The notes under the pieces were generated by a model that was given only the letters and a program-made list of their open reading frames with translations, had not been told where the DNA came from and ran no database searches. A stretch of DNA of 64,000 nucleotides, from contig CAZQQI010000005.1 of NCBI GenBank assembly GCA_964595465.1, positions 9,562-73,561 on the forward strand, in the 5' to 3' direction. Position 1 is the stretch's first letter. Every line of letters begins with the position of its first letter. Both the position numbers and the translations under genes were made by a program. Below are positions 18,704 to 38,150 of the stretch, one piece after another. This stretch comes from an uncultured Planctomycetales bacterium (GTDB lineage Bacteria; Omnitrophota; Gorgyraeia; Zapsychrales; JANLHA01).

Positions 18704-18711
18704 AATGAACA

Positions 18712-18860
18712 ATACTTTCGGGATCGGGTGCAATTCCCGGCTGGTAGTGACCCGGGGTCCATAAGATCCAGGGAAGCCTGCGAGCCTCTCCGGTATACGG
18801 CGGGGCTGATCAAGTGAAAATCTTGAGCCAATAGTGAGAGCCTAGATGGGAGAAAGTAGC
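18712..18860 (+). promoter_or_regulatory. FMN riboswitch (RFN element) aptamer
   Basis: The region matches the RFN consensus: CTTTCGGGATCGGGTGCAATTCCCGGCTGGTAGTGACCCGGGG...AGCC...GATGGGAGAAAG aligns with the B. subtilis/E. coli TTCGGGGCAGGGTGAAATTCCCGACCGGCGGTAGTAAAGC...GATGGGAGAAG. It lies upstream of ribBA. Confidence 0.9.
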
Positions 18861-18913
18861 CGACAAAATGTTTAACCGTGTCCGCGCTGTGGCGGACCGG
18901 GTCTGGCTAGAGT

Positions 18914-30526: not shown

Positions 30527-31102
30527 ATGAGCTGTCAGGATCTGATCAAAGGGCGGCGCAGTGTCCGCAAATTCAAAGATACTTTGGTGAAAGATGAGGA
30601 GGTCGTCCAGCTTCTGGACGCCGCCCGCTGGGCTCCTTCCTGGATGAATACCCAGTGCTGGGAGTTCATTGTGGTCCGTGACGAAGACCTGATCCGTCAG
30701 GTCGTAGAGACCTTCAGCCCGGCCAATCCGTCACGTCCTTGTGCCGGCGAGGCTTCTGTCCTGCTGGTCGCGGCCGCCCGCCGGGATGCCGCGGGGATGG
30801 GGAAAGACGGGAGACCGTCAACCGAAATCCAGAATTGGTTTATGTTCGATCTGGGCGCGGCCGTGCAGAATATCAGTTTGGCCGCGTATGATATGGGCCT
30901 GGCCACGGTCGTTGTCGGTTCGCTTGACCATGCCCGCTGTGCGGAACTTTTGAAGGTTCCCGCTGATGTTCAGGTTGCCGCCGTTCTTCCGGTCGGCCGT
31001 CCCGCGCAGACTCCGGCTCCGAAACCGCGCAAGGATCTCGATGAGTTCGTCTCGGTCGATCATTACGGAAAGCGCTGGGCTTTAGGGGGAGAGGAAAAAT
31101 AA
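30527..31102 (+). CDS. Nitroreductase-family NAD(P)H-flavin oxidoreductase
   Basis: The N-terminal RRSVRKF motif typical of the nitroreductase family is present in a 191-aa protein. Confidence 0.8.
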   Translation: MSCQDLIKGRRSVRKFKDTLVKDEEVVQLLDAARWAPSWMNTQCWEFIVVRDEDLIRQVVETFSPANPSRPCAGEASVLLVAAARRDAAGMGKDGRPSTEIQNWFMFDLGAAVQNISLAAYDMGLATVVVGSLDHARCAELLKVPADVQVAAVLPVGRPAQTPAPKPRKDLDEFVSVDHYGKRWALGGEEK

Positions 31103-31103
31103 A

Positions 31104-31790
31104 ATGCCGCAGACATACGAATATACTATGGGCCGTGAGCTGGATCTCGCCGCTGAGCAGCAGAAAACCCTTAACACCCCCTGTCTGGAGGCGCATGTCA
31201 TTCACAAGGCCATGTTCTGGATGATGGACGTGCTTTATGGGAAAGAGGTCAGCTGGCCCAAGGTCAAGGTTCTGGAGATCCTGGCCCGCTACCCGTACTG
31301 GGCCTGGGAAGACGGGGGATACAACGGTCTCAGCCGTCTTTATGCGCGCACTACAGAGCCGGCCGAAGCAGATGTTGAGAATTTTCGTAATTATATTTCA
31401 TTGGGCCGCGACAGCCAGGATAATGAAGAACTGCACATGCTGATCGCCGAAGACATCATTGCGCAGAAAGGCATAAACCTGGGCTGGTTCCGGCATTGGC
31501 TTCTGCCCCGGCTGATGGGGACGGGATACGCGATCCTCACCAAGATCATTTTTCACCTCAGTCCGTCATTGTCGTTCTATATGAACGCCGCTTTCGAATC
31601 GCATGCCGAACATGAATATATGTCCCTGGCCGCCGATCATCCGGAGTGGGAAGATGTCCCCGTCGATTCCAAGTACTTCAAGTACTATCCCCGCCAGAGC
31701 AGTCTTAACAATCTTATCCGCCGCATCGCGCTCGACGAGCGTGACCACATGTACCATTCCCTGGAAGAATACGAAAAGCTTAAACACTGA
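31104..31790 (+). CDS. Alternative-oxidase (AOX/PTOX) family di-iron carboxylate protein
   Basis: Four helix motifs match the AOX iron ligands: LEILA (LET.A), NEELHML (NERMHL), AFESHAEHEY (LEEEA.H.Y) and ALDERDHMYH (RADEAHHR). The ATG is 1 nt after the nitroreductase stop. Confidence 0.65.
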   Translation: MPQTYEYTMGRELDLAAEQQKTLNTPCLEAHVIHKAMFWMMDVLYGKEVSWPKVKVLEILARYPYWAWEDGGYNGLSRLYARTTEPAEADVENFRNYISLGRDSQDNEELHMLIAEDIIAQKGINLGWFRHWLLPRLMGTGYAILTKIIFHLSPSLSFYMNAAFESHAEHEYMSLAADHPEWEDVPVDSKYFKYYPRQSSLNNLIRRIALDERDHMYHSLEEYEKLKH

Positions 31791-31852: not shown

Positions 31853-32137
31853 TTATTTCGAATCACGTCCGGTGAGTTTGTCTTTGATACGTTGGCAGGC
31901 TTTTTCCGAAAGGCAGCAATCGGAAGGGGGTTCGTGACTGCAGACAGCCTCCATGTAATGCTTCAGTGTTTCGCGCAGGCTTTTGAGCTGTTTACTGCAG
32001 TACACGCAGGTTCTGCAGACCGCAAGGTGAGCGGTCAGCATGGCCTTTTCTTTCGCGGAAAGTTCTTCTTCCATACTCTTGGACATCAAAACAGTGGCGA
32101 TCTTGCAGGAGATATGATCTTTGTCCGTGCCGGTCAT
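31853..32137 (-). CDS. Zinc-binding anti-sigma factor (ZAS family, RsrA/ChrR-like), cytoplasmic and Cys-rich
   Basis: The HxxxCxxC motif HLAVCRTC is present. The protein is 94 aa with 9 Cys, and its gene overlaps the upstream ECF sigma gene by 4 nt. Confidence 0.7.
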   Translation of the reverse strand: MTGTDKDHISCKIATVLMSKSMEEELSAKEKAMLTAHLAVCRTCVYCSKQLKSLRETLKHYMEAVCSHEPPSDCCLSEKACQRIKDKLTGRDSK

Positions 32138-32727
32138 TGTTCTCCTTTACGTTCAAACCAATTCTCTTCGATACATCCCCGCATCTGCAGACGGGCGCGG
32201 TGCATCATGACCCAGAGGTTGGTCGGTGTAATGTTTAAAATCTGACAAATTTCCTTCGTTTCCATGTGGTCCAGTTCTCTCATAGAGAACGCCTCGGCTG
32301 TGCGCGAAGGCAGTTTCTGAATGCACTTTTCCAGCACTTCCCAGAATTCGTGGTTTTCGCTGAGTTCGCGGGGGTTAGCCTCCCAGTCGGAGGGATATTT
32401 GTTGGGATGGCCGACCTGGTCGAAAAAGGAATCCACGGTCATGGATTCTTTGCGGCTCTGCAGACTGGAAACCGGTGTCTCACGGTATTTCTTGCGGAAA
32501 TAATCAATGATCTTATGTTTCAAAATTCCGATCATCCAGGTCCGCTCGGTGGATCGTCCGGCGAATTTATCTCTGGCCTTGAACGCGGCCAGAAATGTCT
32601 CCTGAACAAGGTTTTCAGCTTCATTGGGATTGCGCAGACGTCCCAGGGCAAAACGATAGAGGTAGTTGCCGTATTTATCGACCCACTCCGCCGGGTCGGA
32701 TAATTTGCGTGATGTGGTATCCGTCAT
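32134..32727 (-). CDS. ECF-type RNA polymerase sigma-70 factor
   Basis: Sigma-70 region 2 (...LVQETFLAAFKARDKF...) and region 4 HTH (...ICQILNITPTNLWVMMHRARLQMR) are present in a 197-aa protein. Confidence 0.85.
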   Translation of the reverse strand: MTDTTSRKLSDPAEWVDKYGNYLYRFALGRLRNPNEAENLVQETFLAAFKARDKFAGRSTERTWMIGILKHKIIDYFRKKYRETPVSSLQSRKESMTVDSFFDQVGHPNKYPSDWEANPRELSENHEFWEVLEKCIQKLPSRTAEAFSMRELDHMETKEICQILNITPTNLWVMMHRARLQMRGCIEENWFERKGEQ

Positions 32728-33134
32728 AGCAGGATTACTTTATCAAGGATTTGGAGAATGCGCAAGCAGGAATTCCCTGTAAGCCTTGGCATTTTTATTC
32801 GACTAAATAACACTCAACAGCGCATCAAAAAACCTCTCCCAGAAGGTCAAGGCCTGCTCGCTTGCGGGCGGGTCTTGTTTTAAAAAGGGAAATAACAAAA
32901 AATGGGGAAAGCATGAAAAGAATTCACTTTTTTTGTGATGTTGTTCATAAAAATCCGGAAAATCGGGAGGAATTACAGCATACCCGGCATTTATTCGTCT
33001 TTGTGGTCCGCGGCGAACAGGCTGAACAGGAGGAAAATGGTGATGCTCCGGATAAAAATCAGCGTTTTAAATCGCCGGGCCCGTATTTTAAGGGGAAACC
33101 TCGAGGGAATTTTTAGCGGAGAAAGGGGGAGATG

Positions 33135-33218
33135 ATGAACAATTATCTGGATTTTATCCGGTCCTGGTCTGACGAAGACGAGGCAGAAGAGTGTCTTCCC
33201 TGTCTCTGCGCTGACTAG
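33135..33218 (+). CDS. Candidate 27-aa Cys-rich acidic peptide MNNYLDFIRSWSDEDEAEECLPCLCAD with a strong SD; too short for the ORF track
   Basis: AAAGGGGGAG sits immediately upstream of the tandem ATG ATG at 33132/33135, with a TAG stop at 33216-33218 followed directly by a terminator-like structure. No homology is claimed. Confidence 0.3.
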   Translation: MNNYLDFIRSWSDEDEAEECLPCLCAD

Positions 33219-33223
33219 ATAAC

Positions 33224-33319
33224 CCGGCTGCCGGTTTTCCTGTTTCCGCAAGGATACAGGTCTGGCCAAACAGGAAATCTCCCTTTGTTTCCTGTTCAAG
33301 CCGGCAGCCGGTTTGTTTT
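33224..33319 (+). terminator. Attenuator-like structure: outer stem CCGGCTGCCGG/CCGGCAGCCGG plus T tract, enclosing the mutually exclusive pairings TTCCTGTTT : AAACAGGAA : TTTCCTGTT
   Basis: The inverted and direct repeats are read directly. The 3' arm is followed by TTTGTTTT. A second 10-bp hairpin GGGGCAGCGG/CCGCTGCCCC (33327-33356) abuts the tRNA promoter -35. Confidence 0.4.
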
Positions 33320-33357
33320 ATCTCATGGGGCAGCGGTTTTTTTCGGCCGCTGCCCCA

Positions 33358-33386
33358 TTGACGTTACATGCCTTCAATGCTACAAT
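33358..33386 (+). promoter_or_regulatory. tRNA-Pro promoter TTGACG-17-TACAAT
   Basis: TTGACG at 33358-33363, a 17-bp spacer and TACAAT at 33381-33386 are read directly, about 38 nt upstream of the tRNA 5' end. Confidence 0.6.
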
Positions 33387-33424
33387 ATGCGTTCATTACG
33401 CTTATTAATAGTATTAATATAAAT

Positions 33425-33502
33425 CGGGAAGTAGCGCAGCTCGGCTAGCGCGCAACGTTCGGGACGTTGAGGTCGAGGGTTCAAATCCCTCCTTCCCGAC
33501 CA
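33425..33502 (+). tRNA. tRNA-Pro (anticodon CGG), CCA encoded
   Basis: The cloverleaf was folded by hand: acceptor CGGGAAG/CTTCCCG, D stem GCGC, anticodon stem CAACG/CGTTG with loop TTCGGGA (anticodon CGG, G37), T stem GAGGG/CCCTC with TTCAAAT, and discriminator A followed by CCA. C1:G72 plus A73 is typical of bacterial tRNA-Pro. Confidence 0.9.
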
Positions 33503-37253: not shown

Positions 37254-37270
<17 letters not shown>

Positions 37271-38150
37271 TCATGTCGAATCTTTTTTGAATTATCTGGC
37301 TGTGGAACGGGGCCTGGCGGATAATACGCTGTCGGCGTACCGGCGTGATCTTAAAAAATATGCGGCTTTTTTAAACGAACAGGGTTGTCCCGGTCCGGAA
37401 TCAGCCAGCCGGGATCAGGTGACCGATTATATTTATGCCCTCAAACGGGAGGGGCGTGAGGTAACCACGATTTGCCGCAATTTGGCGGCTGTAAAGGGGT
37501 TTCACCGATTTTTGGTCCGCGAAGAAGTTGCCCGCGAAGATCCTACAGCTCTGGTCGAGACACCGCGTTTATGGCAGAGGGTCCCGGACGTGCTGTCCGA
37601 AAGGGAAGTTGAGTCTATGATCCGCGCTGCCAGAGGGCATGATATTCAGACCGTGCGCAACCGCGCCATTCTGGAATTATTTTATGCCTCGGGGATGCGG
37701 GTTTCAGAATTGGCGGATTTGCTTCTGGAAAATGTGCACGCGGATGCCGGGTATGTCCGGTGTACGGGAAAAGGACAAAAAGAAAGGATCGTGCCTGTCG
37801 GACGGGAAGCGGTCGCCGCGGTCGAGGAATATGTCGGCAGTGCCCGCCCGGCACTGGCCAAAGGCTCGTCCTGCCGTCAGGTGTTCATCAGCCGGTTGGG
37901 ACGCCGTTTAAGCCGGCAGAGCCTGTGGAAGATCATTAAAAAGTATGTCCGTCTGGCCGGGATCCGCAAGACGATCAAGCCGCATACCTTGAGGCATTCC
38001 TTCGCGACCCATTTGCTGGCCCGCGGAGCGGACCTGCGCTCGGTCCAGGAAATGCTGGGGCACGCGGATATCTCGACCACACAGATTTATACCCATGTGG
38101 ACCACGAGCGTCTGCGTCAGGTTCATAAGAAATTTCATCCCCGGGGGTGA
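37254..38150 (+). CDS. xerD: Tyrosine recombinase XerD
   Basis: Collinear with E. coli XerD, including the C-terminus ...[31 protein letters not shown] (E. coli XerD [31 protein letters not shown]) and the RHxxR...Y catalytic residues. Confidence 0.85.

Follow-up and report, generated by a model that had tools for sequence, protein, structure and literature searches.

The closest described counterparts of the locus studied here are modules in which an extracytoplasmic function (ECF) sigma factor is paired with a soluble anti-sigma factor of the ZAS type. In SigR-RsrA of Streptomyces, SigE of Neisseria and RpoE2-HrsE of Haemophilus, as here, a short cytoplasmic anti-sigma gene lies 3' of the sigma gene (PMC7907618). 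Soluble anti-sigma factors of oxidative stress share the motif C/H-X23-26-H-X3-C-X2-C (PMC7907618), and a published means of discovering ECF promoters is to look for bipartite motifs that are over-represented in front of sigma genes or of genes divergent from them (PMC7776599). We analysed a 64,000-nt stretch of DNA from an uncultured Omnitrophota bacterium (contig CAZQQI010000005.1; this whole stretch is hereafter the window) and focused on the spacer between an ECF sigma gene and the gene for tRNA-Pro(CGG). Like the described modules, this locus has a bipartite motif with a fixed 16-nt spacer that recurs beside the sigma gene across the family. It departs from them in that the motif of the Omnitrophota clade faces away from the sigma gene, toward tiny open reading frames (ORFs), while the sigma gene has a sigma70-type promoter. 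Our preferred reading, which we hold with moderate confidence, is that the spacer is a small, lineage-variable transcription unit between two conserved promoters, a sigma-driven cassette of small genes and not an attenuator. It would be a further instance of familiar elements: an operon of small-protein genes under ECF control and an elaborate intrinsic terminator.

From left to right, the spacer contains the sigma gene's own promoter (minus strand), the ECF-type motif, a terminator-like hairpin (T1), two small ORFs (ORF-A and ORF-B), a Y-shaped stem, a 12-bp hairpin (SL3) and the tRNA promoter. These features and the flanking genes are as follows (SD, Shine-Dalgarno sequence; MFE, minimum free energy; dG, folding free energy):

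31853-32137, minus: gene for a soluble ZAS anti-sigma factor of 94 aa (Pfam zf-HC2, E 2.7e-6)
32134-32727, minus: ECF sigma gene (Pfam Sigma70_r2 and Sigma70_r4_2)
32728-33424: the studied spacer, 697 bp, between the ECF sigma gene (minus) and tRNA-Pro(CGG) (plus)
32737-32765, minus: sigma70-type promoter of the ECF sigma gene, with -35 TTGCGC (32760-32765), a 17-nt spacer and extended -10 TGATAAAGT (32737-32745)
32778-32806, plus: ECF-type promoter TGTAAG-N16-CGACTAA, directed away from the sigma gene and toward ORF-A
32846-32884, plus: T1, terminator-like hairpin GGCCTGCTCGC-TTGC-GGGCGGGTC followed by CTTGTTTTAA, found by terminator scan in two registers
32913-33116, plus: ORF-A, conserved small gene of 67 aa, MKRIHFFCDVVHKNPENREELQHTRHLFVFVVR and then a disordered basic tail
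33132/33135-33218, plus: ORF-B, acidic Cys-rich ORF of 28 aa (27 aa from the second ATG), MMNNYLDFIRSWSDEDEAEECLPCLCAD, with SD GGGGGAG and an ATGATG start
33113-33214, plus: SL1, long-range stem between the purine run with the ORF-B SD (GCGGAGAAAGGGGGAGAU) and the CLPCLC codons (GUCUUCCCUGUCUCUGC); MFE -40.2 kcal/mol, z -2.96
33217-33320, plus: Y-shaped three-way-junction stem with a U-tract (TTTGTTTTA); dG -52.7 kcal/mol, z -7.69, MFE and centroid folds the same
33323-33361, plus: SL3, perfect 12-bp inverted repeat (arms 33325-33336 and 33347-33358) with a T-rich loop; dG -28.4 kcal/mol, z -6.2
33358-33386, plus: tRNA-Pro promoter TTGACG-17-(TG)n-TACAAT, found by promoter scan
33425-33502, plus: tRNA-Pro, anticodon CGG (ARAGORN; Rfam tRNA model, 64.7 bits)

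The ECF-type promoter was assessed among 119 related loci (designated by L numbers), which we collected by scans seeded with the sigma protein and by contig look-ups. The motif has a single exact match in the window. Within 300 nt upstream of the sigma homologues it has 32 exact copies, against about 0.2 (0.15-0.3) expected from the window-wide rate of 0.26 per 64 kb, and its spacer is 16 nt in almost all of them. Eighteen of the 32 copies lie on the sigma strand, in distant phyla (Nitrospira, Methylococcales and other distant homologues); the remaining 14 are divergent, 11 of them in the Omnitrophota clade, where the motif sits at -76 to -127. In the window it stands back-to-back with the sigma70-type promoter of the sigma gene, and transcription from it is predicted to start at about 32812. 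The motif is present in the window and in all seven distinct spacers of relatives that bear small ORFs (exact, with one mismatch in L122), and L039, L115 and L118, the three spacers that have none, lack it or hold a degenerate version. A fixed spacer of 16-17 nt and over-representation beside orthologous sigma genes, both found here, are what is expected of an ECF sigma-dependent promoter. From this association we infer that the motif is recognised by this sigma family and that transcription of the block is ECF-dependent and runs along the plus strand. The anti-sigma gene lies directly downstream of the sigma gene, and its product carries the ZAS motif as C11-X25-H37-X3-C41-X2-C44. The TGTAAG...CGAC motif differs from the SigR consensus.

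We also examined which genes lie behind the motif elsewhere. In other phyla it precedes genes for DUF547, DUF3179, DoxX, YgaP-like transmembrane and ArsM-like methyltransferase proteins, a gene for a DedA/disulfide-oxidoreductase fusion and a gene for a secreted Cys-rich protein with GKCGE repeats (loci L016, L033, L007, L025, L073, L037 and L034). A thiol- or metal-stress signal for the sigma system is plausible because of these genes 3' of the motif in other lineages. L117, an Omnitrophota relative that lacks the tRNA, has two ECF motifs (2398-2423 and 470-496, both minus) before a divergent operon (1-2423) for a 109-aa protein, a CMD/AhpD-like protein, a DedA (VTT) protein and a pyridine-nucleotide-disulfide oxidoreductase (Pyr_redox); this operon hints at a redox or thiol regulon. 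An exact TGTAAG-N16-CGAC is also found inside the sigma coding region, at about +460, in about 25 loci (for example L004 4466-4491 and L007 4463-4488). In many distant homologues some 100 nt separate this intragenic copy from the anti-sigma gene that follows, and the window has a one-mismatch version of it at 32222-32247 (minus strand). The copy could serve the anti-sigma gene as an internal ECF promoter, or it could reflect conserved codons (EIC-K...).

Sequence conservation marks ORF-A, the first ORF behind the promoter, as a real small gene of an Omnitrophota-specific family. A preliminary description of this region, made from the DNA letters, had treated the block as non-coding and overlooked this gene. 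By tblastn, ORF-A matches syntenic positions in L116 (8e-7) and L111 (2.5e-5), which match each other at 1e-14. A profile search of 5.8 billion proteins returned six clusters (E 1e-13 to 4e-29), all unnamed or 'hypothetical', with every named one from Omnitrophota; at NCBI, ORF-A itself is a 'hypothetical protein' of a Candidatus Omnitrophota metagenome-assembled genome. These homologues surfaced only through the syntenic loci and the profile: a single-sequence search of 1.84 billion representatives gave ORF-A itself and one spurious match, and a word-index search gave ORF-A alone. The family is recognised by an N-terminal block of about 33 aa and by a gene position between the ECF sigma gene and tRNA-Pro, and ORF-A has both. 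Residues M1, C8, R25, H26, F28 and F30 are invariant within MK[KR]xxxxC[DE]F...RH[LIV]F[IV]F. The codon score of ORF-A, 0.255 per codon, is close to that of the sigma gene (0.235); real genes score 0.358 +/- 0.118, and the 95th percentile of shadow (chance) ORFs is 0.069. Its SD, GGGGA at 4-nt spacing, is the same in L003. AlphaFold2 predicts a 12+12-residue beta-hairpin over residues 2-32 (predicted local distance difference test about 95) and a disordered tail. Searches of Pfam, NCBIfam and PHROGs found no family for ORF-A, and a PDB sequence search and Foldseek returned nothing meaningful because the model is merely a beta-hairpin. On the opposite strand, a 102-aa ORF (32991-33299, minus) was rejected for its codon score of -0.16.

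The relatives keep the order of sigma gene, spacer, tRNA-Pro, acylphosphatase and ligase genes, with spacers of 244-888 bp. One locus, L001, is a copy identical to the window (Logan run SRR11308339). The nearest other relatives share 72-79% sigma identity, with none between 79% and 100% in the collections searched. The spacers differ in the small ORFs that they hold:

L039: 244 bp, no small ORFs
L115: 292 bp, no small ORFs
L118: 345 bp, no small ORFs
L114 (= L040): 459 bp, a 27-aa ORF only
L116: 581 bp, ORF-A only
L002: 599 bp, a 52-aa lipoprotein-like ORF
Window: 697 bp, ORF-A and ORF-B
L003 (= L041): 887 bp, ORF-A and a small ORF
L111: 888 bp, a lipoprotein-like ORF, ORF-A and an 18-aa ORF
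L120: ORF-A only; no spacer length, as the contig ends inside the tRNA promoter

The block is thus lineage-variable, and its DNA matched L001 alone, with no match in the 109 other related loci searched. The order common to relatives is ECF promoter, ORF-A, terminator and tRNA promoter. L116 and L120 show it in compact form: the ECF motif, about 55 nt, ORF-A, a canonical hairpin with T8-9, and the tRNA -35 a further 6-12 nt on. Canonical terminators occupy the equivalent place in L116, L120 and L002, and in L003 ORF-A and a small ORF are followed by a long-range stem of about 30 bp with U7. Directly 3' of the ECF promoter, L002 (967-1125, minus), L111 (2229-2381, minus) and L122 (140-292, plus) have lipoprotein-like ORFs of 50-52 aa; this family, which the window lacks, combines a signal peptide with a lipobox-like [FY]AC and ends in a short acidic tail. 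Tiny ORFs lie 3' of ORF-A in L003 (3349-3462, minus; 26-37 aa) and in L111 (about 1930-1985, minus; 18 aa), each with a strong SD and with unrelated sequences. A micro-ORF 3' of ORF-A may be a recurring arrangement despite the differing sequences.

Both promoters that bound the block are conserved. An alignment of the sigma-proximal spacer ends shows TTGCnn-17-(TG)nTAnAnT upstream of the sigma gene in six relatives, and a consensus scan also flagged it in L116 and L003. In the window the extended -10 ends 9 nt from the ATG, and the sigma mRNA therefore probably has little or no leader. Relatives, L039 among them, have about 25 nt there, with an SD. As the sigma promoter is found in the roughly 40 nt next to the start codon, the block is not the 5' untranslated region (UTR) of the sigma gene, an option that the preliminary description had allowed for. 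The consensus TTGACG-17-TACAAT promoter which that description gave for tRNA-Pro(CGG) is present at 33358-33386, and each of the eight tRNA-bearing relatives has TTGACG-17-TA(C/G)AAT there, preceded by a TG (L002, L003, L039, L111, L114, L115, L116 and L118).

ORF-B begins 16-18 nt past the ORF-A stop codon. The earlier call of an ORF at 33135-33218 with a very strong SD holds, the SD being GGGGGAG, and its codon score of 0.161 per codon exceeds the shadow-ORF 95th percentile. We found no Pfam, NCBIfam or PHROG match for ORF-B, which is too short for protein databases, and no significant similarity to the small ORFs of L003 and L111. Its closest resemblance is to the syntenic 27-aa ORF of L114 (MMEDYFESMKSCRDLQEMVSELFGEEL; shuffle p 0.019, uncorrected for multiple candidates), which has the same GGGGAGG-ATGATG start and does not share the Cys-rich tail. 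The SL1 stem starts at the ORF-A stop codon on its 5' side, and its pairing recurs in the 266-nt fold of 33100-33365. SL1 may couple ORF-B translation to that of ORF-A. As in translationally coupled pairs of small proteins with a sequestered SD, the gap is 16-18 nt and the predicted stem buries the ORF-B SD; the locus differs from such pairs in that ORF-B is not conserved alongside ORF-A in relatives and its translation is putative. ORF-B also resembles Cys-rich micro-peptides, such as mini-metallothioneins and precursors of ribosomally synthesized and post-translationally modified peptides (RiPPs), in its acidic N-terminal part and C-terminal CxxCxC. Unlike these, it has no family match and no adjoining maturase, transporter or metal gene, and no radical SAM, YcaO, LanM, MNIO or similar gene that would indicate a RiPP precursor is found among the annotated neighbours. 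We put the chances that ORF-B is translated at about even.

The repeats, hairpins and promoter hexamers quoted in the preliminary description are all present, and the region folds beyond chance (z -7.7 for 33215-33325; z -7.5 for 33100-33365). The Y fold spans about 100 nt, with its junction at 33217-33318, and reaches -52.7 kcal/mol against -26.9 +/- 3.4 kcal/mol for shuffles. Its outer stem of about 20 bp pairs GAUAA.CCGGCUGCCGGUUU with AAGCCGGCAGCCGG.UUUGUUUUAUC and encloses one inner hairpin with a GCAA loop (CCUGU.UCC-GCAA-GGA.ACAGG) and a second formed by AAACAGGAAA and UUUCCUGUUU. The block had been described as segments that pair in mutually exclusive ways. The repeats behind that proposal are exact: TTTCCTGTTT (33236-33245) with AAACAGGAAA (33268-33277), AACAGGAAA with TTTCCTGTT (33288-33296), and CCGGCTGCCGG with CCGGCAGCCGG. 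However, a fourth segment had been missed, GGATACAGG at about 33253-33261, and with it all four CCTGT/ACAGG segments pair simultaneously in one Y fold. When the 5' arm is masked, as by a ribosome on the stop codon (33216-33218), the 3' arm still folds as CAAGCCGG-CAG-CCGGUUUG with UUUU, and the terminator scan reports the same 3'-arm hairpin (33297-33315 with TTTT). Over 33100-33365 the plus strand folds to -122.4 and the minus strand to -98.1 kcal/mol, a difference of 24 kcal/mol; this is consistent with a plus-strand unit because the stronger plus-strand folding agrees with the promoter direction. The Y element has a GC-rich stem followed by a U-rich tract on the transcribed strand, and we consider it a predicted intrinsic terminator of the ORF-A/ORF-B transcript. 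It is like Rho-independent terminators in having the stem directly before the U-rich tract at the end of a short unit. It is unlike them in that two inner hairpins sit within the stem, the U-tract is broken up, and behind it comes a second perfect hairpin that has no U-tail. This second hairpin, SL3, had been described as perfect over 10 bp; it does lie beside the tRNA -35, but its perfect stem is 12 bp, 13-16 bp pair in the fold, and neither strand has a U-tail. SL3 may serve as a backup block to read-through. A hammerhead-like interpretation of the three-way junction was discarded, as the junction strands misfit and Rfam gave no match.

The terminator-like hairpin T1 is GC-rich with an A-run upstream, possibly acts in both directions, and lies in the predicted 5' UTR, 30 nt before ORF-A. 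The leader fold around it (32808-32916) has z -1.96, and in this fold a pyrimidine run, CCUCUCCC, is able to pair with the ORF-A SD. L122 has a terminator at the same relative position, just before ORF-A. T1 may be an attenuation point, the source of a short RNA, or a relic of a lost upstream small gene, the last because L111 and L122 have a lipoprotein-like ORF there. An Rfam scan of the spacer and tRNA region at gathering and permissive thresholds passed the gathering score for the tRNA alone; the best sub-threshold match, sbrA, is weak and is due to the terminator-like T1 hairpin over which it lies (22.8 bits against a gathering score of 45, E 0.05).

Two explanations fare worst. The preliminary description proposed a leader-peptide attenuator, in which a ribosome on the CLPCLC codons selects terminator or antiterminator and so controls read-through into downstream genes. 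What invites this idea is a short ORF with three Cys in six codons that ends 5 nt before a structure with multiply pairable segments, and ORF-B does resemble leader peptides of the trp, his, leu and pheST type in its clustered identical codons beside a multi-hairpin with U-tract. Yet the MFE and centroid folds both have the four segments paired together, and masking of the 5' arm leaves the terminator hairpin and U-tract; there is no antiterminated state because this hairpin forms in both ribosome states. The tRNA-Pro gene is served by a conserved promoter of its own, so that no downstream gene depends on read-through. The sole Pro codon of ORF-B is CCC, so a link to the tRNA through CCG lacks its codon, and domain annotation of the neighbours shows no Cys-pathway gene nearby. 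ORF-B is a second cistron after a conserved gene, whereas a leader peptide stands first, and neither the peptide nor the hairpin block, whose conservation had been proposed as a check, is conserved in any relative. An exclusive antiterminator, a regulated downstream gene, codon logic and conservation, the marks of the described attenuators, are all absent here, and we regard this explanation as extremely unlikely. The same description had also raised the possibility that the block is what remains of a mobile element or island that had entered beside the tRNA gene, and the check that it proposed, absence of the block from close relatives, turned out positive in the 244-345 bp spacers of L039, L115 and L118. 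The content also differs among relatives, the block is AT-richer than its flanks, and the ends of the Y element are long inverted repeats. Elements usually integrate at the 3' end of a tRNA gene, however, and this block lies 5' of it, between two conserved promoters. It has no adjoining integrase or transposase (the sole integrase-family gene, at about 37254-38150, looks XerC/D-like and is 4 kb away), no significant tRNA-derived direct repeats and no phage similarity; the Y element occurs just once in the 64 kb, and ORF-A and the ECF promoter are vertically conserved at this position across the clade. The GC content of 45% given for the supposed island was right (45.2%; 53.8% for the window), but the flanks measure 51-55% and not 58%, and the homologous spacers of relatives are equally AT-rich or more so (GC 28-42%). 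The spacer therefore has ordinary intergenic composition and is no island. We consider an insertion very unlikely. These candidate traces were set aside: a 20-nt, 75% match of 32960-32979 to the tRNA 5' end falls within conserved ORF-A codons and was treated as chance; a dispersed repeat or miniature inverted-repeat transposable element has no second CCGGCWGCCGG pair or AAACAGGAAA arrangement in 64 kb; and one viral-contig match to the arm pattern was a chance match in GC-rich coding DNA.

Two further explanations were weighed. Under one, ORF-B is untranslated, and 33113-33361 (SL1, Y and SL3) is a structured 3' UTR of ORF-A or a small RNA, stand-alone or derived from that 3' UTR, the Cys peptide being a by-product of SL1. 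Three consecutive stem-loops with z -7.5, CLPCLC codons that are the exact strand pairing the purine-rich 'SD', the lack of a demonstrable ORF-B homologue, and the L116 and L120 spacers, where ORF-A is directly followed by its own terminator, all speak for it. The codon score above the 95th percentile of chance ORFs speaks against it, as do the very strong SD, the ATGATG start, the spacing typical of coupled cistrons and the marginally similar L114 ORF with its GGGGAGG-ATGATG start; there is no Rfam family match, and the structures are not conserved in relatives either. We judge this unlikely, though it is the strongest of the competing explanations. A second would move the control point from Y to T1: the ECF promoter would yield mainly an RNA of about 70 nt ending at T1 (32812-32884), with ORF-A and ORF-B reached by regulated read-through. 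T1 is a hairpin with a U-tract 40-70 nt past the predicted start, the leader pyrimidine run can pair with the ORF-A SD, and L122 likewise has a terminator before ORF-A. Against this, the leader fold reaches a z of only -1.96, the leaders of L116, L120 and L114 are short and unstructured, so that T1 is not conserved, and T1 is possibly a relic of a lost small gene like the lipoprotein-like ORF of L111 and L122. We consider this arrangement rather improbable.

Several observations also weigh against the sigma-driven cassette that we prefer. T1 stands between the promoter and ORF-A, and ORF-A expression in this genome would therefore need read-through; the promoter scan found no alternative promoter for ORF-A. 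The motif is assigned to this particular sigma factor by association. The U-tract of the Y stem is interrupted (UUUGUUUUA) and partly paired with the upstream GAUAA, and a branched terminator is out of the ordinary. The model leaves SL3 without an explanation. For ORF-B no homologue could be demonstrated, and its Cys codons could simply follow from the pyrimidine strand of SL1. The cassette comes near to the fallback of the preliminary description, a small Cys-rich peptide gene with a complex terminator, to which ORF-A and the ECF promoter must be added.

In the proposed mechanism of this cassette, the ECF-type promoter at 32778-32806 would fire once the soluble ZAS anti-sigma factor releases the sigma factor. 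A plus-strand transcript from about 32812 would then carry the leader with T1, ORF-A and, 16-18 nt further, ORF-B. The ORF-B SD would be sequestered by the ORF's own CLPCLC codons, and translation of ORF-B, if it takes place, would depend on ribosomes that finish ORF-A. The transcript would end at the Y stem and its U-tract (33217-33320), which would act as intrinsic terminator and stable 3' end, and the Y stem and SL3 together may insulate the constitutive tRNA-Pro promoter.

Elsewhere around the spacer, the neighbouring genes encode AIM24, acylphosphatase, DNA ligase, the sigma and anti-sigma factors, an alternative-oxidase-like protein, a nitroreductase, a response regulator and a Na/Pi transporter. 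A gene for a 228-aa protein (31104-31790, plus) is convergent with the anti-sigma gene; it has a weak alternative-oxidase (di-iron) match (E 4e-5) and occupies the same position in L003 and L111. The nitroreductase-family gene (30527-31102, plus) lies on the same convergent side of the anti-sigma gene. An FMN riboswitch (RFN element) is found in the window at 18710-18861 (plus; 85.1 bits, over the gathering score).

This work is mainly a correction: the hairpins beside the Cys-rich mini-ORF are best read as the end of a stress-sigma operon. It offers TGTAAG-N16-CGAC as a candidate promoter motif for an ECF family across many phyla, with a first sketch of its targets, and ORF-A as a tiny Omnitrophota-specific protein family that is always found between the sigma gene and tRNA-Pro. 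The locus would also be an example of an ECF promoter facing away from its sigma gene into a rapidly changing micro-gene cassette. A bolder and rather improbable extension is that ORF-B is a real, coupled CxxCxC micropeptide, induced with ORF-A by a thiol- or metal-responsive ECF/ZAS switch and acting as a thiol- or metal-binding effector or in feedback on the zinc-containing anti-sigma factor; such a theme is conceivable because of the genes behind the motif in other phyla. If this were true, the Omnitrophota clade would have turned an autoregulatory ECF promoter outward, toward a quickly evolving set of tiny genes (lipoprotein-like ORF, ORF-A and micro-ORFs). The current understanding is not overturned by these findings, which offer the study of small proteins and ECF factors in an uncultured phylum something to test.

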